Source: a phage
Sequence record: PZ445406.1
Reading direction: 5' to 3' (one strand)
DNA length: 47,149 nt
Both the position numbers and the translations under genes were made by a program. The notes beneath the pieces are model-generated. The model did not search any database, was not told the origin of the DNA, and saw only the letters and a program-made list of their open reading frames with translations. Of the stretch, positions 10,711-41,054 are shown piece after piece (position 1 is the stretch's first letter; every line of letters starts with the position of its first letter).

Positions 10711-11187
10711 ATGAACTGGAATGATATTTTCGATTATAGGGATGGTGTTCTTTATTGGAAGATAAGTCCGAGGTCAAGAACCCCAATCGGATCAGTTGCC
10801 GGACATTTATCAAAGGCTGGCTATATAACAACGTCATACATGAAGAGGGCTCTTCTTGCCCATAGGGTTGTGTGGGAAATGCATAACGGACCAATACCAG
10901 AAGGAATGCAGATAGACCACATAAATCACAACAGAAGTGATAACAGGATTTGCAATTTAAGACTTGCTACTGTTTTTGATAACAATCAAAACATGAGCAG
11001 AGGTAAGGGAAATAGAAGTGGCGTTGTTGGTGTTAGCTGGCATAAGAGCGCAAAAAAGTGGTGCGCTGAGATTCATGCGAATGGCAAAAAGAAATACCTC
11101 GGCGTGTTTGATAGTTTTGATGATGCGGTTCTCGCTAGAAAGAGCGCAGAGTTACATTTTGGTTTTCATGAAAATCACGGAGCATAA
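10711..11187 (+). CDS. HNH homing endonuclease (HNH plus AP2-like domain)
   Basis: HINHNRSDNR motif then AP2-like GVSWHKSAKKW; free-standing with own promoter between tape measure and M genes. Confidence 0.75.
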   Translation: MNWNDIFDYRDGVLYWKISPRSRTPIGSVAGHLSKAGYITTSYMKRALLAHRVVWEMHNGPIPEGMQIDHINHNRSDNRICNLRLATVFDNNQNMSRGKGNRSGVVGVSWHKSAKKWCAEIHANGKKKYLGVFDSFDDAVLARKSAELHFGFHENHGA

Positions 11188-27125: not shown

Positions 27126-29120
27126 ATGTTACCTATCGAGAAGCTGGTTGCAAACTTTGATAAAGAAAGAATTAAACAGATTCAGAAAGATTACCAGTTT
27201 GGCGAGATAACCCCTTACGAGTTCCAGTGCGTTACATTTGATGCAATTGGGAAGGCTATTGGCAAGTATGAGGCCCCATTTATCGCAGATCTTTCTGTGT
27301 CTGCTGGTAAGACAATCATTCTTGCCATGATTGGTAAGCGCATGGAGCAATTGGGATTGCCTTACATGGTTCTATCTCGCCAGTCAGAGATAATCAGCCA
27401 GAACTCAGAGGAACTTCGTAACTTCGGCATCCGTAACAGCGTATATTGCGCCGGCCTTAACGTTAAATCAGTTTATTACCCAACCATAGTTGCTAGTGAG
27501 GGCACGGCAGCCAACGGCTTGTTTAAGGGGCTTGGTGACTACGTCCCTGCAGTTATCGCAATAGACGAATGTCACATGGTCGATCACATGGATATTGTAG
27601 AAGCTGAGGAGAACGAAGAAACATTTGAGCAAATGAGCACAAAGAAAGGAGAAATGGTATTTAAAGATGGCGTTAATACCGGATTGCTTGGCACTGGTCG
27701 TGCGCAGTACACGCTAATCATCACCGAAATGAAAAGGCGATGCCGCGAGAAGTACGGTCGCGAGCTTAGAATTTTTGGCCTAACTGGCAGCCCGTATCGA
27801 AATAACGATCACATAGTGGTTAGCAATCCAAATGTTCGTGGATTCTGGCGCAAGACAGTGATTCAGGTGCCAACTAATTACCTTGTTGATTTGGGATTTG
27901 TTGTGCCTACTGTTTATGGCGAGGTTGGCGATTTGGGTTACGATCTTAGTGAGTTTGTGCCCGATGGGAACGATGGCGTGAAGGACTTTGGCAAGAAAGA
28001 AATGGATGCAATGGAAGAGAAAATCCACCAAAGCCAATCCATGACGCAAAAGATTATGCAATTTGCTGCAAAGTTCATGGAGACTCGTAACTCGGCTCTT
28101 GTGACATGTTCTGGTAAGCGTCACTGCGAGGAAGCGGCAGCGTCGCTTCCTGATGGTGTGACATGGGCTATAGTAACTGACTCTACAGGTGAGAAAAAGC
28201 GCCGTGAGATTCTGGCTGATGCATATGAAGGTAAGTATAAATTCATATTTCAGATAGGTTGCCTCACAACCGGCGTTAACGTTCCACCATGGGATACATC
28301 AATCATTCTGCGCAAAGTTGGTAGTATCACGCTTCTTATTCAGCTTTTGGGTAGAGGAATGCGAATTCTTAAGAAGAAGCATAAGGAAATGGGAATGGTT
28401 AAGGATGATCACGTGGTGCTTGACTTTGCTGGTACTCTTGATGACATGGCAGAATTGTACTTTGACCCAATCATAGAAGAAGTTCAGGACCAGAAGTTCA
28501 AATCGTCACGAAAAAGTGGCGACAATCCAAGGGTATGTCCTGCCTGCGGCTATGAGAACTCTCCTTTTGCTCGTCGCTGCAATAACGTAATTGATGGGAA
28601 ACGTTGTGAGCATTTTTTTAAATTTCGCTTGTGCGAAGACATAGAGGACCAGCAGACAAAAGTTACTATTAAGAAAGGTTGTGGTGAGAAGAATGATATT
28701 GCCGCTAAAAACTGCAGGTGCTGTGGCGAGATGCTTATTGACCCTAACGCAAAGTTGTCTGGAAAGATGTATCGACAAGGGGATTGGTTGAGAGTTTACG
28801 GATTCAGTATTGGGTTAACTAAAAACCAAACCGGAATCGTTGCTCGATATGAAATCATGGCTCACAGCGGGGATAGGTTTGTTGCTTACGAAACTTTCTT
28901 TCCAGAGAGTGATCATCGCGTCTGCTCTGTAAAGTGGAAGGCGTTTTGCCAAACCCACATCGCCAACAAAACAGAAGCATTTCGCATCGGAAGACTTCGA
29001 AACACTAAAATGATTATGACCAATGCAAGTCAATTCCGTGAACCTATGAGAGTGACGCACAGAAAAAACCAGAAAGGTCAGGATATTATCGCAAATAAAT
29101 CTTTTACTATGGAGGATTGA
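27126..29120 (+). CDS. SF2 DNA helicase with C-terminal zinc ribbons
   Basis: Walker A-like SAGKT, DECH box, multiple CxxC pairs at C-terminus. Confidence 0.65.
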   Translation: MLPIEKLVANFDKERIKQIQKDYQFGEITPYEFQCVTFDAIGKAIGKYEAPFIADLSVSAGKTIILAMIGKRMEQLGLPYMVLSRQSEIISQNSEELRNFGIRNSVYCAGLNVKSVYYPTIVASEGTAANGLFKGLGDYVPAVIAIDECHMVDHMDIVEAEENEETFEQMSTKKGEMVFKDGVNTGLLGTGRAQYTLIITEMKRRCREKYGRELRIFGLTGSPYRNNDHIVVSNPNVRGFWRKTVIQVPTNYLVDLGFVVPTVYGEVGDLGYDLSEFVPDGNDGVKDFGKKEMDAMEEKIHQSQSMTQKIMQFAAKFMETRNSALVTCSGKRHCEEAAASLPDGVTWAIVTDSTGEKKRREILADAYEGKYKFIFQIGCLTTGVNVPPWDTSIILRKVGSITLLIQLLGRGMRILKKKHKEMGMVKDDHVVLDFAGTLDDMAELYFDPIIEEVQDQKFKSSRKSGDNPRVCPACGYENSPFARRCNNVIDGKRCEHFFKFRLCEDIEDQQTKVTIKKGCGEKNDIAAKNCRCCGEMLIDPNAKLSGKMYRQGDWLRVYGFSIGLTKNQTGIVARYEIMAHSGDRFVAYETFFPESDHRVCSVKWKAFCQTHIANKTEAFRIGRLRNTKMIMTNASQFREPMRVTHRKNQKGQDIIANKSFTMED

Positions 29121-29121
29121 T

Positions 29122-29541
29122 ATGAAAATTACAGATAAGGTTGATTACATTGAGTTTTACCCAGGCCCTGTTAATTCATGCCCTAAAGAGGATGACGAAC
29201 AAATCTTTTGCTCTGATTGGGTTAAGTATAACTATCCAGACATGGTGTTTTTCCACTGCGTGAATGAGGGTAAGAAAACAATTGGACAAGCAAGAAAAGA
29301 CCAGGCTAAGGGTTTATTGAAGGGCGTATCTGACTGCATGTTTCTGATACCTGAATCTATCCGAGGCAAATACCCTTTCGGAGCCATAGAGCTAAAGAGG
29401 GCAGGAAAAACACAGGCAAGCCCAGTCAGTGACGAACAGAAGTCCTTCCTGAAAAGCGTAAGAGAATCAGGCGGCTTCGCGGCTGTAGCCTATGGTCGCG
29501 AGGGTTTTCTGGCAGCATTCAAAGAAATGATTTCAAAATAG
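29122..29541 (+). CDS. VRR-NUC-like PD-(D/E)XK nuclease
   Basis: D...ELK signature (SDCMF...IELKRAGK); GGAGGA SD. Confidence 0.5.
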   Translation: MKITDKVDYIEFYPGPVNSCPKEDDEQIFCSDWVKYNYPDMVFFHCVNEGKKTIGQARKDQAKGLLKGVSDCMFLIPESIRGKYPFGAIELKRAGKTQASPVSDEQKSFLKSVRESGGFAAVAYGREGFLAAFKEMISK

Positions 29542-29619: not shown

Positions 29620-29823
29620 ATGGCCACTATCTACACCACTAAGAAATACATTTCACGTAAAACTGGTTACGAGTATAACCTGGTTCTTGATGACTCGCTC
29701 GGCATGCTTCTCGCTGACGCTGAAGATGCTGAATACTGCTTTGAAGTTAGCTCGACTTACAAAGATGATTTAGAAACTGTTAAAAACGTATTCGGCGAAA
29801 AATTTGATGAGGTGTCAGAATGA
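29620..29823 (+). CDS. hypothetical small protein, paralog A1
   Basis: C-terminus identical to next gene; own phage-type promoter. Confidence 0.55.
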   Translation: MATIYTTKKYISRKTGYEYNLVLDDSLGMLLADAEDAEYCFEVSSTYKDDLETVKNVFGEKFDEVSE

Positions 29824-29907: not shown

Positions 29908-29940
29908 CAACTCATCGAAAAGAAACTAGGAGAGAAAAAA

Positions 29941-30134
29941 TGAATACTATCTATACTGCTAAATTCTACGAATCACGCAAAACCGGTTACCAGTATGAAT
30001 TAGTAATTACAGATGACGGTTATTTTCTTGATGATGGTGAGGGGTACTCATTCGAAGTTAGCCCAACCTACAAGGATGATTTAGAGACTGTTAAAAACGT
30101 ATTCGGCGAAAAATTTGATGAGGTGTCAGAATGA
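29941..30134 (+). CDS. hypothetical small protein, paralog A2
   Basis: ATG 29941 after phage-type promoter; last 22 aa identical to A1. Confidence 0.55.
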
Positions 30135-31392: not shown

Positions 31393-31475
31393 CGAGCCTA
31401 ATACTAGTAGCATCGTTACCACTGTTTAGCTTTACTATCTTATACTTTATCGTAATGAATTAAGGAACTTTTATA

Positions 31476-32606
31476 ATGGCAACCGCAAAAATCACCAACG
31501 AACAATTGCGCGAAGAGTTAGCAAATGGCATGACCAACAAGGCAATCGCAGAGAAGTACGGAATGAACATTCGCAACGTTGAATTGCGTCGCAGTAAATT
31601 AGCTAAACAAGGCGAAGGGCATGGTCGCGATGTAAGCAACTTAATCCCTCAGGGCTATGCAGTTAAAGGCGTCTCCAGCTTAATTGGTGCTGATGGCGAG
31701 ATTAAGCAACAGTGGGTTAAATCAGATATCGACAAGGAGAAGCAAGAAGAGATGATGCTTCAGGCAATTCAGGCCCTAACTGATGAGTTGCCGCGTGAGA
31801 AAGCTAAAGCTTTAAGGGTTGGTTTATGGGAAGATACTTTAAGCCTTTACCCCGTGTTCGACCTCCACATTGGAGCAATGGCTCATCATGCTGAGTGTGG
31901 TGAGAACTATAGTACTGAAATCGCTGAGAGAGTTCTTAATGATTACTTTGATTACGCGGTTGCAAAGGCCCCCAACTCCAAGAAAGCTGTATTGCTGATT
32001 GGGGGTGACTTCCTTCACTCTGACGGAATGGAAGCGGTAACACCAACCAGTCGTCATGTTCTTGATCAAGATAGCCGTTATCACAAACTTGTTTACGTAG
32101 CAGTGCGAGCGACACGTCGAGCAATTAGCCGTATGCTTGATAAGCACGCCGAGGTTGAGGTTCAGATTATTCCAGGTAACCACGATCTCTCAGGTATGAT
32201 TTGGCTTCGTGCTGCAATGGCAGCTTTCTATATGGATGAGCCTCGAGTTAATGTTGATGCGTCCCCCGCTGCGCTTCACGTAACGCAATTTGGGAAGACG
32301 CTGCTTGGTTACTGCCATGGGCACGAACTCAAAAAGCCTGATACCCGACTATCAGCACTGGCTCGTGACCATCGCAAAGCATTTGGTGAATCAGAGTATG
32401 TTTACACCCATTCAGGCCACTATCACCATCAAACTATTACGGAAGGAAATCTGGGTATTGATGAATCACACGGCCAGCTTGGAGCGAAAGATGCGTACAG
32501 TGCTAACGGAGGTTATCGCTCTTACCGACAGGCTTCGGTGATAATTTATAGTCCTGAGTTTGGTGAGATTGGACGATTTACTTGCCGCCCGGAAATGTTT
32601 AGTTAA
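31476..32606 (+). CDS. calcineurin-like metallophosphoesterase with N-terminal HTH-like segment
   Basis: DLHIG, GGDFLHSDG and IPGNHD motifs in phosphoesterase order; HTH-like KAIAEKYGMNIRNVELRRSKL. Confidence 0.5.
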   Translation: MATAKITNEQLREELANGMTNKAIAEKYGMNIRNVELRRSKLAKQGEGHGRDVSNLIPQGYAVKGVSSLIGADGEIKQQWVKSDIDKEKQEEMMLQAIQALTDELPREKAKALRVGLWEDTLSLYPVFDLHIGAMAHHAECGENYSTEIAERVLNDYFDYAVAKAPNSKKAVLLIGGDFLHSDGMEAVTPTSRHVLDQDSRYHKLVYVAVRATRRAISRMLDKHAEVEVQIIPGNHDLSGMIWLRAAMAAFYMDEPRVNVDASPAALHVTQFGKTLLGYCHGHELKKPDTRLSALARDHRKAFGESEYVYTHSGHYHHQTITEGNLGIDESHGQLGAKDAYSANGGYRSYRQASVIIYSPEFGEIGRFTCRPEMFS

Positions 32607-32649
32607 TAGCACTTTTTGCCTAACGCATGCCGTAGAAATGCGGCATAAT
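32606..32649 (+). promoter_or_regulatory. phage-type promoter module
   Basis: ATAGCAC-tttt-TTGCCT, 22-bp spacer, CATAAT, leader TACCACATCGAAACGAAA. Confidence 0.5.
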
Positions 32650-32690: not shown

Positions 32691-32867
32691 ATGACTAAAA
32701 TGATTTATTGCACCAAAAACAACTCCAAGACGCTACCATTTACAGTTAACCAGCCGTACAATGCAGAGTACCAGGGTGATGGATATTACAAGATTTACGG
32801 CGACGATATGACGTGGATTTTAGCGCCGATTGAAGGTTCACTGGTTGAATTCATTATCGCTGACTAG
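32691..32867 (+). CDS. hypothetical 58-aa protein
   Basis: Phage-type promoter and leader upstream, terminator downstream; not in ORF track. Confidence 0.4.
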   Translation: MTKMIYCTKNNSKTLPFTVNQPYNAEYQGDGYYKIYGDDMTWILAPIEGSLVEFIIAD

Positions 32868-32893: not shown

Positions 32894-32919
32894 GGGGAGC
32901 CTTTTGGCTCCCTTTTTTT
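32894..32919 (+). terminator. intrinsic terminator before lysis cassette
   Basis: GGGAGCC-tttt-GGCTCCC hairpin plus T7. Confidence 0.6.
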
Positions 32920-34064: not shown

Positions 34065-34080
34065 TGGAGGCTATATTTTT
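34051..34080. terminator. bidirectional terminator after spanin
   Basis: AGCCTCC-taat-GGAGGCT with flanking A-run and T-run. Confidence 0.55.
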
Positions 34081-34414
34081 AGCTAAATAACTCGTCGTCA
34101 GTCATTGTTCCTATATTCATCATCTCTTTTATGTACTTGCTTTGATACCCGTTAAGCGCCTCGAAGTTAAACTCAAATGGCCTCTTCAAGCTACCCTTGC
34201 TAGCAAACTCACCGCACTTACCATCAATGTATCCCATGCTAAGCATCTTCGCGCAGAACTCCTTTGAAGCGGCGCTGCAAAATTCTCTGTGAGATAATCC
34301 TGCTGCTTTGCTAAATCTCTCAGAGTCCTTGTGTTGGTAGATGAATCGCGCCAAATGCTGGCGCGTAAAGTATGAATACGACTCACAGAAGCGGTATAAA
34401 TCCAAAATGAACAT
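34079..34414 (-). CDS. hypothetical protein
   Basis: 111-aa ORF downstream of ATPase gene; bidirectional terminator at its 3' end. Confidence 0.45.
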   Translation of the reverse strand: MFILDLYRFCESYSYFTRQHLARFIYQHKDSERFSKAAGLSHREFCSAASKEFCAKMLSMGYIDGKCGEFASKGSLKRPFEFNFEALNGYQSKYIKEMMNIGTMTDDELFS

Positions 34415-34417
34415 TCA

Positions 34418-36001
34418 TCACCCCAGCAATCTCGGATTAATATAAACTTTATCACCAATCAGGCACGTATAGTTTTTCTCATCAAGCATTGGCAGTAAGT
34501 GATCTTTAATCTTCGTCATCACCCCAGCCTGAGCCTCGAACGGCTTAACCTTGCGCGCTGCCTCATACAATGAACGAACACCAACAACTCCCTTACCGTT
34601 TTTGCCTTGCTTGATCAGGATATCAATAAGCTTATTCATCTCGGCATTGTCTCCAGCGTGACCCGCAGCGTTGGCAGATGATAGATACGTCTTGCTCAGC
34701 TCCTGGAACATAATTACTGCCTCTTGCATGGTGTCTAGCTCAATCTCTCTTGACTTCTGTGGACTTCCACCGTTAGGGTTGAACCAGTTACGCACAGTGT
34801 GAAGAACCGCTGCAATCCTGATGGCCTGTTTATCGAACTTCCCCAACGCGCCGCGCAACATTGTGTGGGAATACTTACCGCCGTCAGCAAGGTGAGGTTC
34901 CATTTCCTGACGAGCGCGGTTTAGGTATTTCATTGCTGAATTACTCACTGTCAACTTTACTTCTTGCTCGTTCATTATTTCGTGAACCAATCGGAAGTAG
35001 TCAGCCTTCAACCCGCCATCAATTGGTTCATAAGTCGATTCGCCATTTTCATCAACGAATACACGCTCACCCAGGAATGACTTTTCACGAACCAAAAGGA
35101 AACGTTCAGATACACCGATACCGCGCGCACCAGCATTCATGATTGCGTTAATTGTTTCGTCTTGCGCAATTACAGAGATGCAGCCCATAGCAACGAAGCT
35201 CATGTTGTTCTCTGCGTTCGCACGGGCGATAGATACGTTACCAGCATCCCATGCTTTAAGCACAAGCTCGCTGTTCGTTTTCTTTGAGCCATCGCCATAC
35301 GTCATGCCAAGAAGTGAATTCACGCTCGTTGCTTCATCCGAGATTACTGCGAAGTTTCCCTGGCGGTTGTTTATTCGGGCCAAGCCTTCAGGCGTAGTGT
35401 CTGATACGGGGAAAACGATATCGCAAAGTTTCTCGAGCTTCTCCTCTAAATCTTCTTTTTCCTCAAATAGTGAAGCCATCTCTGACGGAGATTTTTCCTG
35501 CTTCATCTCTTTGGATAATGCAGATAGTTTGGCCATGATCTTTTTACGCTCACGCTTTCGCACTTCATTCAGTCGCTCAGTCTCGGCAATCATTGGAGCA
35601 ATTGAAAGTGAGTTAATAGCTGATTTACCAGTAGATGGTGGCTGGCTTGTTACGACGTAAAGCGACGTGGGCTGCTGAGTTCCGTGATACTCTACAGTGA
35701 ATCGACCAAGCATAGCAGCGGAAATACACCCCAGGAAGTGCATGTAAGCTGAAGATTCAGGGAACTGAACCGAACGAGCAATGTTGGCTGACAGTTTACC
35801 AACAACATCAATATCATTTCCTAGTGAGATTACAGGATACTTGTCATTGGCAGCGTCAATCTCTACTGGCGCCTTCCAGAATGATTGGGACTGTCGATAG
35901 CCATTAGCATTGATGGCGACACGCAAAGGCGGGAGGTTGTCTGCGGCAGCGATTGCCATAACCTGTTCAACAGATAGTTTATCTTCGTTGAAATCAAACA
36001 T
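34418..36001 (-). CDS. P-loop ATPase (possible replication helicase-like protein)
   Basis: Walker A-like PPSTGKS and Walker B-like VISDEA; coiled-coil insert; termini shared with 39187-39714 protein. Confidence 0.5.
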   Translation of the reverse strand: MFDFNEDKLSVEQVMAIAAADNLPPLRVAINANGYRQSQSFWKAPVEIDAANDKYPVISLGNDIDVVGKLSANIARSVQFPESSAYMHFLGCISAAMLGRFTVEYHGTQQPTSLYVVTSQPPSTGKSAINSLSIAPMIAETERLNEVRKRERKKIMAKLSALSKEMKQEKSPSEMASLFEEKEDLEEKLEKLCDIVFPVSDTTPEGLARINNRQGNFAVISDEATSVNSLLGMTYGDGSKKTNSELVLKAWDAGNVSIARANAENNMSFVAMGCISVIAQDETINAIMNAGARGIGVSERFLLVREKSFLGERVFVDENGESTYEPIDGGLKADYFRLVHEIMNEQEVKLTVSNSAMKYLNRARQEMEPHLADGGKYSHTMLRGALGKFDKQAIRIAAVLHTVRNWFNPNGGSPQKSREIELDTMQEAVIMFQELSKTYLSSANAAGHAGDNAEMNKLIDILIKQGKNGKGVVGVRSLYEAARKVKPFEAQAGVMTKIKDHLLPMLDEKNYTCLIGDKVYINPRLLG

Positions 36002-40436: not shown

Positions 40437-41054
40437 ATGGCTAAAATAATCATTCTTAATGGACCTGCTTCTATTGGTAAGGACACTATCGGTAACGCGC
40501 TTGTGAAAGATTACAATTGCATCCCGACAAGCTTTAAGCTTCCTATTTTTGAGATCGCAGCTTCAGTCCTTGGCACTCGGGCGTTCAGTAAGTTCATCAC
40601 GGCTTATAATGACCGAGATCAGAAAGAGATGCCTCATGATTTTCTCGGTGGGAAAACGTGTCGAGAGTTCATGATCTGGATTAGCGAGTCGGTGGTCAAG
40701 CCGCTATTTGGCAATCAGCACTTCGGTAAGCTGACGAGCGAGCGTATCCAGCTTTGTGACGAGGGATTTAGCTTTGTTTGCACTGATGGCGGTTTTCCTG
40801 ATGAGGTTATACGCCTGGTGGAAGATGGTCACTATGTTACCGTTGTGCGCCTGTTCATGGATGGCAAGACCTTCGCGGGAGATAGCCGTGATTATATCCG
40901 CATCAAGGAATCGCACTTCCCTGATTATAGGCAATATAACGAGCATGATGTACATCTGGTGAATGGTGATATTGACGGCGGCGTCATGGCAGTGGTTCGC
41001 GCCTGCGGTATCCGTCCTGCAATCGACGAGTGGGCCGACGATATTCCCTGGTAA
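40437..41054 (+). CDS. P-loop nucleotide kinase (dNMP kinase-like)
   Basis: Walker A GPASIGKDT resembling T4 gp1 P-loop; ~155-nt leader after phage-type promoter. Confidence 0.5.
   Translation: MAKIIILNGPASIGKDTIGNALVKDYNCIPTSFKLPIFEIAASVLGTRAFSKFITAYNDRDQKEMPHDFLGGKTCREFMIWISESVVKPLFGNQHFGKLTSERIQLCDEGFSFVCTDGGFPDEVIRLVEDGHYVTVVRLFMDGKTFAGDSRDYIRIKESHFPDYRQYNEHDVHLVNGDIDGGVMAVVRACGIRPAIDEWADDIPW

Follow-up and report, generated by a model that had tools for sequence, protein, structure and literature searches.

What does a phage gain from a metallophosphoesterase (MPE) with a helix-turn-helix (HTH) at its N-terminus, and on what substrate does such an enzyme act? The question is raised by bas02_0047, a coding sequence at positions 31476 to 32606 (plus strand) of the window, that is, of the whole 47,149-nucleotide stretch of DNA analysed here. 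This stretch is the entire genome (47,149 bp) of JeanPiccard (Bas02, MZ501080.1), an Escherichia phage from the BASEL collection; it is a virulent, T1-like siphovirus classified in the Drexlerviridae, Braunvirinae. The sequence is rotated relative to GenBank, and the coordinates used here equal the MZ501080.1 record coordinate minus 2592; in that record the gene occupies 34068-35198 and is labelled 'hypothetical protein'. It encodes a protein of 376 aa from an ATG start, and a ribosome-binding site (AAGGA, 31462 to 31466, plus strand) could be read from the sequence 9 nt 5' of the ATG.

Despite that label, bas02_0047 is a member of an already annotated family, PHROG 704 / T1 gp16. The phrog_704 profile ('DNA repair exonuclease') matched the protein at E=8.7e-149, with residues 4-375 aligned to positions 2-389 of the 390 in the profile, and T1 gp16 (ST16) is its ortholog. 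In the closest full-length annotated comparison made, the protein was 57% identical to a 'putative phosphoesterase' of Warwickvirus tunus. The earlier note on this DNA had missed that the gene belongs to this known and widely annotated phage family (T1 gp16, PHROG 704). Relatives were found in 2,049 phage records by tblastn, and an exhaustive HMMER scan returned 4,699 clusters at 50% identity (E≤1e-3), 1,010 of them at E≤1e-30 and with most members 375-420 aa long. The family is thus present in over 2,000 sequenced phages, including T1, Klebsiella weberviruses, Salmonella jerseyviruses and many marine phages, and several of the phage groups that carry it serve in phage therapy. Its public names are 'DNA repair exonuclease' and 'putative phosphoesterase' (RefSeq), T1 gp16 and PHROG 704, the first of which is best read as a prediction. 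A literature search found no functional or essentiality study of any PHROG 704 member, a single-sequence phmmer search with bas02_0047 matched nothing in the PDB, and a structure search of BFVD returned only uncharacterised or automatically named viral relatives.

To define the catalytic residues, conservation was assessed in an alignment of 111 representatives with 30-40% identity to bas02_0047. Five motifs were identified on the plus strand: motif I, DLHIG, with the metal ligands D129-L-H131 (31860 to 31868); motif II, GGDFLHSDG, in its GDFLH form (G177-D178-F-L-H181-S-D183; 32004 to 32024); motif III, GNHD (G234-N235-H236-D237; 32175 to 32186); motif IV, HGH (H281-G282-H283; 32316 to 32324); and motif V, GHYHH (G314-H315-Y-H317; 32415 to 32426). 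The earlier note had picked out DLHIG, GGDFLHSDG and GNHD in canonical order, and all three are present, with HGH and GHYHH completing the set. D129, H131, D178, N235, H236, H281 and H317 are invariant in the 111 homologs, while H315, G234, D237, H181 and D183 are nearly so, H181 being kept in at least 90% of them. The reservation attached to the earlier observation, that the metal-binding residues might prove unconserved, falls away, since the invariant columns comprise the full set of binuclear-metal ligands together with the catalytic His. The Pfam model PF00149 (Metallophos) scored just below its cutoff on bas02_0047 (20.8 bits vs 21.5, E=5.6e-4) and matched 26 of the 111 relatives at E<0.01, some of them above threshold (e.g., 25.6 bits). 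Together with the four-layer alpha/beta/beta/alpha fold, which is present in bas02_0047, the conserved residues indicate that the protein is in the calcineurin-like metallophosphoesterase superfamily (PF00149 clan), with the five-motif signature DxH / GD / GNH(D/E) / H / GHxH. Judged from the alignment, the predicted binuclear active site is intact and of the nuclease type.

The MPE domain, which was delimited by Pfam, the alignment, the model, and fold and profile comparisons, comprises aa 119-376 (31830 to 32603, plus strand), and what precedes it is equally characteristic of the family. The N-terminus forms a three-helix HTH (aa 1-45, with helices at 8-16, 21-27 and 32-44; 31476 to 31610, plus strand) that is seen in the AlphaFold (AF2) model and matched by GerE and family-level HTH models. 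In bas02_0047 alone the Pfam match is weak (GerE, E=0.044); individual relatives match Sigma70_r4_2 (1.5e-9), GerE (2.4e-8), HTH_8, HTH_1, HTH_50 and other HTH models, and the family profile matched GerE in the PDB at E=0.0096. The HTH is therefore real at the family level, and the HTH-like segment of about 50 aa that had been suspected from the sequence is borne out by these matches and by the three helices of the model. Between the HTH and the catalytic domain lies a linker that is conserved in the alignment and resolved in the AF2 model as a beta-hairpin (aa 61-85) followed by a helix (aa 87-102; 31656 to 31781, plus strand), with hairpin residues G74 and W80 near-invariant among the 111 homologs. 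This conserved hairpin and helix had been absent from the earlier description. All 111 homologs have at least 105 residues (median 133) ahead of the MPE core, and the longer relatives carry a second HTH. Apart from a single or double HTH, no recognisable domain is found fused to an MPE of this type. Conservation is unevenly distributed over this architecture, the recognition helix of the HTH being poorly conserved and the catalytic residues invariant in the 111 homologs.

To which branch of the superfamily does the catalytic domain belong? Comparison of the model with known structures gave the highest figure for T. maritima Mre11 (3qg5; 14.6), followed by the proofreading exonuclease DP1 of PolD (13.9), S. 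aureus SbcD (13.8), MJ0936 (13.5), M. jannaschii Mre11 (12.5), the Pol delta B-subunit (12.4), E. coli SbcD and eukaryotic Mre11 (both 12.3), LpxH (12.1), GpdQ (11.4), the cNMP phosphodiesterase Rv0805 (11.0) and Protein phosphatase 5 (8.3). When a profile restricted to the MPE domain was compared with all PDB sequences at E≤10, 11 were matched, ten of them DNA nucleases and the remaining one a spurious oxidase; the E-values were 0.008 for T. maritima Mre11/SbcD, 0.015 for MPE, a Mn-dependent ssDNA endonuclease of P. putida, and about 1 for archaeal Mre11. By fold and profile, the closest structures are DNA nucleases (Mre11/SbcD, PolD DP1 and P. putida MPE), although the link to them suggested by sequence is marginal, with E about 0.01. 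In the alignments with the PDB nucleases, motifs I, III and V fall at matching positions, and motif II reads lGDflH against TGDLLH in Mre11 and LGDFLH in P. putida MPE. A His three residues past the motif-II Asp is characteristic of the nuclease branch of MPEs, and D178 and H181, which align with GDLLH of T. maritima Mre11, have this spacing. We take H181 to be the counterpart of the motif-II His on which the exonuclease activity of Mre11 reportedly depends (Williams et al. 2008); in P. furiosus Mre11, mutating this His selectively removes that activity. The PPP Ser/Thr phosphatase signatures GDxHG, GDxVDRG and GNHE, on the other hand, were not found in bas02_0047.

The genomic surroundings provide a second line of evidence. 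The JeanPiccard gene belongs to a rightward-oriented block that begins with an SF2 helicase (27126-29120) and a VRR-NUC nuclease (29122-29541), both on the plus strand, and continues with about eight small ORFs, the HTH-MPE gene, a 58-aa DUF7244 ORF and a strong intrinsic terminator (32894 to 32913, plus strand; 8-bp GC-rich stem and T-run), after which come the holin, endolysin and spanin genes. A primase and a regulator diverge upstream of the block, and downstream of it the opposite strand encodes a DUF3987 helicase. As bas02_0047 is the last large gene of the helicase / VRR-NUC unit and thus ends a replication block next to the lysis cassette, its assignment to an early operon in the earlier note is not established. 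The order helicase, VRR-NUC, HTH-MPE is kept in T1, in tunus and in a metagenomic relative, and synteny is conserved across the Drexlerviridae. Elsewhere the surroundings vary: in jerseyviruses the gene lies within an island among tail genes, in podovirus PP99 it is located between an endonuclease VII / exonuclease and a PNKP-type phosphatase, kinase and ligase, in a Vibrio phage it adjoins SSB, in marine contigs it lies directly upstream of TerL or of TerS-TerL, and it is often within a few genes (1-4) of an endolysin. In three lineages, represented by 18 loci, the HTH-MPE gene is followed first by a gene for a HAD_PNKP phosphatase that stands alone (PF25109, E 4.5e-20 and 1.4e-14) and then by a kinase-like P-loop gene, which resembles dNMP kinases (PF21448) and not polynucleotide kinases. 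In T1 this pair of HAD_PNKP and kinase genes is located at another place in the genome, and JeanPiccard has kept only the kinase-like gene (40437-41051), with no HAD_PNKP and no ligase. No obligatory partner gene was detected in about 170 clustered loci; the only genes that recur there are those for endolysins and HNH homing endonucleases and, in certain lineages, the pair of HAD_PNKP and kinase genes. What these neighbourhoods have in common is a link to DNA and nucleotide metabolism, and none of the partners is constant. We also considered whether the protein might replace the small terminase subunit, given a TARA contig (L010) in which it abuts TerL, and rejected this, as related lineages have a separate TerS in between and JeanPiccard has a TerS of its own.

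Based on the data presented above, we think it probable, with moderate confidence, that bas02_0047 encodes a predicted HTH-tethered, stand-alone DNA nuclease that would function in phage DNA metabolism. Protein phosphatase, nuclease and messenger-degrading activities had been left side by side in the earlier note; profile and fold now favour the nuclease, and the phosphatase is disfavoured by the missing signature. In the mechanism that we envisage, the HTH, and perhaps the conserved hairpin, would hold the enzyme on DNA and so replace the tethering role of Rad50/SbcC, while the catalytic domain would be an active binuclear (Mn/Fe-type) MPE of the nuclease branch. The tethered enzyme might then act as a Mn-dependent endo/exonuclease. 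The role that we prefer for it would be to attack host DNA, or branched or ended DNA, releasing 5'-mononucleotides for phage DNA synthesis in a pathway of breakdown and salvage; trimming the ends or structures of replication and recombination intermediates would be a second possible role. DNA as the substrate and the biological role are both points that we infer.

Several observations fit a nuclease of this kind, namely the fusion to HTH modules only, the context of DNA and nucleotide metabolism, the invariant active site and the PDB profile matches, which apart from one spurious match are to nucleases exclusively. Two phage MPEs of another family that have been studied experimentally, Bxb1 gp47 and A10ZJ24 gp48, behave in keeping with this mechanism, although their relationship to bas02_0047 is remote. 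The dNMP-kinase-like and phosphatase neighbours fit a role in degradation and salvage; the processing of replication and recombination intermediates would be in keeping with the neighbours that encode a helicase, VRR-NUC, endonuclease VII, SSB and a ligase. Against a nuclease, the sequence matches to nucleases are marginal, the capping domain and the Rad50/SbcC partner that define Mre11/SbcD are missing, the HTH could serve gene regulation instead of substrate binding, and no neighbour that would pin down the pathway recurs from lineage to lineage. Against a part in host-DNA breakdown specifically, JeanPiccard has other nuclease candidates, among them a RecE-like exonuclease VIII, VRR-NUC and HNH proteins.

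According to classical work, T1-like phages, which lack a DNA polymerase, break down the DNA of their host. This agrees with the restriction of Bas12, a phage of the Tunavirinae, by a defence whose sensor detects m6-dAMP set free as the chromosome is degraded (bioRxiv 10.64898/2026.01.15.699771). A more specific proposal, which we put forward tentatively and consider rather doubtful, is that the HTH-MPE is the nuclease that degrades the host chromosome to mononucleotides in T1-like phages and in many other siphoviruses and podoviruses (the T1 'gene 2.5' function), and that it would thereby feed the adjacent or co-encoded dNMP-kinase/phosphatase salvage genes, shut down host defence genes and trip m6-dAMP-sensing defences (Metis, PUA-Cal-HAD). 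To our knowledge, the classical 'gene 2.5' function of T1 has never been cloned; T1 mutants in gene 2.5 show better generalized transduction. A literature search for a T1 gene for host-DNA degradation returned nothing usable. The 'phosphoesterase' mentioned in the Metis and PUA-Cal-HAD preprints was considered as a possible reference to the phage gene and rejected, as it refers to defence proteins. If bas02_0047 is indeed a host-DNA-degrading or DNA-end-processing nuclease, this would explain the nucleotide supply of the polymerase-less T1-like phages, reveal what sets off the defences that respond to degradation products, and provide a minimal, Rad50-independent, Mre11-like nuclease for mechanistic study. 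In our view, the activity with which T1-like phages degrade host DNA has a concrete candidate in bas02_0047, whose family is probably Rad50-independent and Mre11-like.

The HAD_PNKP and kinase-like genes that follow the HTH-MPE gene at the 18 loci, accompanied by a ligase in PP99 and present as a pair elsewhere in T1, raise the possibility of an enzyme that heals nucleic-acid ends. In Clostridium thermocellum Pnkp, the MPE domain removes 3'-phosphates or 2',3'-cyclic phosphates, and an MPE doing the same here could work alongside a kinase, a ligase and a phosphatase of the PNKP type to repair DNA or RNA ends broken by host nucleases. We consider this unlikely. JeanPiccard keeps the MPE without the phosphatase or the ligase, and the resemblance of the P-loop neighbour to dNMP kinases fits nucleotide salvage equally well. 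Moreover, the MPE of CthPnkp is lambda-phosphatase-like, whereas bas02_0047 is closest to Mre11/SbcD/DP1.

The position of the gene at the boundary between replication and late genes in many unrelated lineages (ahead of holin/endolysin in T1-like phages, directly ahead of TerL or TerS-TerL in marine contigs), as well as the strong matches of some members to sigma-70 region 4 and LuxR-type HTH models, could be accounted for by an HTH transcription factor that governs the transition to late-gene and lysis-gene expression and in which the MPE would be a sensor or an accessory enzyme. We regard this as improbable, since a regulator of this kind is at odds with a family in which the catalytic residues are invariant and the recognition helix is poorly conserved. 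A position at a module boundary is also weak evidence, and in jerseyviruses the gene lies among tail genes instead.

Degradation of the second messengers of host defence had been raised speculatively in the earlier note. An anti-defence phosphodiesterase that destroys the cyclic (oligo)nucleotides or other nucleotide messengers on which CBASS, Pycsar, Thoeris or type III CRISPR rely gained no support from matches to PADLOC, to anti-defence phosphodiesterases or to cNMP phosphodiesterases, and appears very improbable. The fold of the cNMP phosphodiesterases is only slightly poorer a match than that of the nucleases, but they gave no sequence match at E≤10, whereas nucleases did. PADLOC returned no family at E≤1, and the NCBIfam 'anti-phage phosphoesterase' model scored 12.7 bits against a cutoff of 420 (E=0.041). 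The obligatory HTH fusion would serve no purpose in such an enzyme, the gene belongs to the syntenic core of the replication block and not to a variable anti-defence island, and a literature search found no MPE-type degrader belonging to the HTH-MPE family.

A proofreading or accessory subunit of a polymerase, like archaeal PolD DP1 or the eukaryotic B-subunits, is highly improbable, as neither JeanPiccard nor T1 has a DNA polymerase gene, the model has no OB-fold domain, and no polymerase gene is a conserved neighbour. To a Ser/Thr/Tyr protein phosphatase that reprograms host proteins like lambda-PP (NinI) we give almost no credence: the superfamily is the same, and in lambda the MPE gene ninI lies just upstream of the late and lysis genes, but GDxVDRG is absent and the fold similarity to Protein phosphatase 5 is the lowest of those compared.

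With the nuclease as the preferred reading, how does bas02_0047 compare with systems already described? With PHROG 704 / T1 gp16 it shares full-length homology, the architecture of HTH, hairpin and MPE, and Drexlerviridae synteny, and there is no substantive difference between them. Stand-alone five-motif MPEs of mycobacteriophages with a role in DNA metabolism are Bxb1 gp47, a weak exonuclease and recombination directionality factor that is required for DNA replication (PMC11795197), and A10ZJ24 gp48, a phosphodiesterase that reportedly disrupts the integrity of host genomic DNA (PMC12287305). For these proteins, too, Mre11 and DP1 come first in structural comparisons (PMC11795197, PMC12287305), and their motifs III-V, including the HGH of motif IV, are in register with those of bas02_0047. 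They nonetheless form a separate family, phrog_221, of about 255 aa and with neither HTH nor hairpin. Close kinship between bas02_0047 and Bxb1 gp47 was rejected, given an hhalign probability of 8.8%, no match of bas02_0047 to phrog_221 and no match of gp47 to phrog_704.

Mre11/SbcD proteins have a C-terminal capping domain and Rad50/SbcC-binding helices, whereas in the model bas02_0047 has neither, ending at residue 376 directly past the MPE core, and instead carries the N-terminal HTH and hairpin. The model aligned with 191 of the 362 residues of Mre11, with 13-18% identity to Mre11/SbcD. No gene for a Rad50/SbcC-like ABC-ATPase is present among the 84 annotated features of the JeanPiccard genome, and Rad50/SbcC was not a conserved neighbour in about 170 related loci. 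An NCBIfam scan at E≤1 recovered no SbcD/Mre11 model, only sub-threshold local matches, such as that of TIGR04123 (PdeM), which was confined to residues 212-240 and scored 19.8 bits against the 150 required. A true Mre11/SbcD was accordingly ruled out by the missing capping domain, Rad50/SbcC partner and curated-model match. Given the lack of a cap, of such a partner and of a match to the SbcD/Mre11 or PdeM models, we regard the HTH-MPE proteins as a distinct stand-alone family in which the HTH is the sole accessory module. The nuclease MPE of P. putida, or PdeM (6nvo), a ligase-associated DNA-damage-response endonuclease, is identical to bas02_0047 in motif II (LGDFLH) and in the context of motif III, with 23% identity over the aligned core, and, like bas02_0047, it has no Rad50-like partner and lies near an SF2 helicase.

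Phage contigs of marine and environmental origin carry the gene encoding HTH-MPE, the helix-turn-helix metallophosphoesterase, directly ahead of the gene for the large terminase subunit, TerL, or of a pair encoding the small and large subunits, TerS and TerL (compared loci L010:8001-10816, L139 and L149), and in L010 the HTH-MPE and TerL genes overlap by 4 bp. With this placement, HTH-MPE lies where the replication and structural modules meet. An endolysin gene (lysozyme or M15 peptidase) was also observed 1-4 genes from HTH-MPE across unrelated lineages (L004, L007, L015 and L098-L177), a proximity that probably stems from a common genome layout and not from a functional connection. In the case of JeanPiccard, the window is the complete genome, circularly rotated so that it is offset by 2,592 bp from GenBank MZ501080.1, and as a result the terminase genes straddle or abut the window's ends.

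The flank of HTH-MPE is also a repeated insertion site for HNH homing-type endonuclease genes in different lineages, with adjoining copies at L009:14029-14511 (T1 ST15), L014:9213-9698, L004:7153-7779 and L079:7137-7709. No HNH endonuclease gene is present beside HTH-MPE in JeanPiccard, but two occur at other sites in the genome, one at MZ501080.1 576-1052, spanning the window's ends, and the other at MZ501080.1 13303-13779 (window about 10711-11187). Product names in the Bxb1 RefSeq record NC_002656 (L006:7876-8788) appear to be shifted, in that gp46 is labeled "Recombination directionality factor" and gp47 "metallo-phosphoesterase", whereas published work assigns the recombination directionality role to gp47 itself (PMC11795197).

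Jersey-like, webervirus-like and PP99-like phages carry, immediately downstream of HTH-MPE, a stand-alone phosphatase gene of the PNKP type (HAD_PNKP) and a dNMP-kinase-like P-loop gene (L050:7128-8170, L023:7172-7660 and L003:7168-8324), and the stop and start codons within this run of genes often overlap. T1 carries both HAD_PNKP and dNMP-kinase-like genes (ST64 and ST62), but away from HTH-MPE, while the JeanPiccard genome lacks HAD_PNKP and retains only the kinase-like gene of the pair (window 40437-41051; 45% identity).

Several small ORFs, all on the plus strand, surround HTH-MPE in JeanPiccard. Two of these (29620-29823, 67 aa; 29940-30134, 64 aa) are adjacent tandem paralogs with 72% identity that share the C-terminal stretch TYKDDLETVKNVFGEKFDEVSE. 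A third (32691-32867, 58 aa), matching DUF7244 (E=2.6e-29), lies between the MPE and holin genes and is conserved in T1-like phages. The helicase-to-MPE-to-DUF7244 block is set apart from the genes for holin, endolysin and spanin by a strong intrinsic terminator at 32894-32913 (+), whose 8-bp stem includes 6 GC pairs and leads into a T7 run. A hairpin with an 8-bp stem capped by a GAAA tetraloop is found at 32627-32646 (+), 20 nt past the MPE stop codon; it lacks a U-tract, and its folding energy does not reach significance (z=-1.65). In T1, an annotated terminator follows ST16, the ortholog of HTH-MPE, at the position equivalent to this hairpin.
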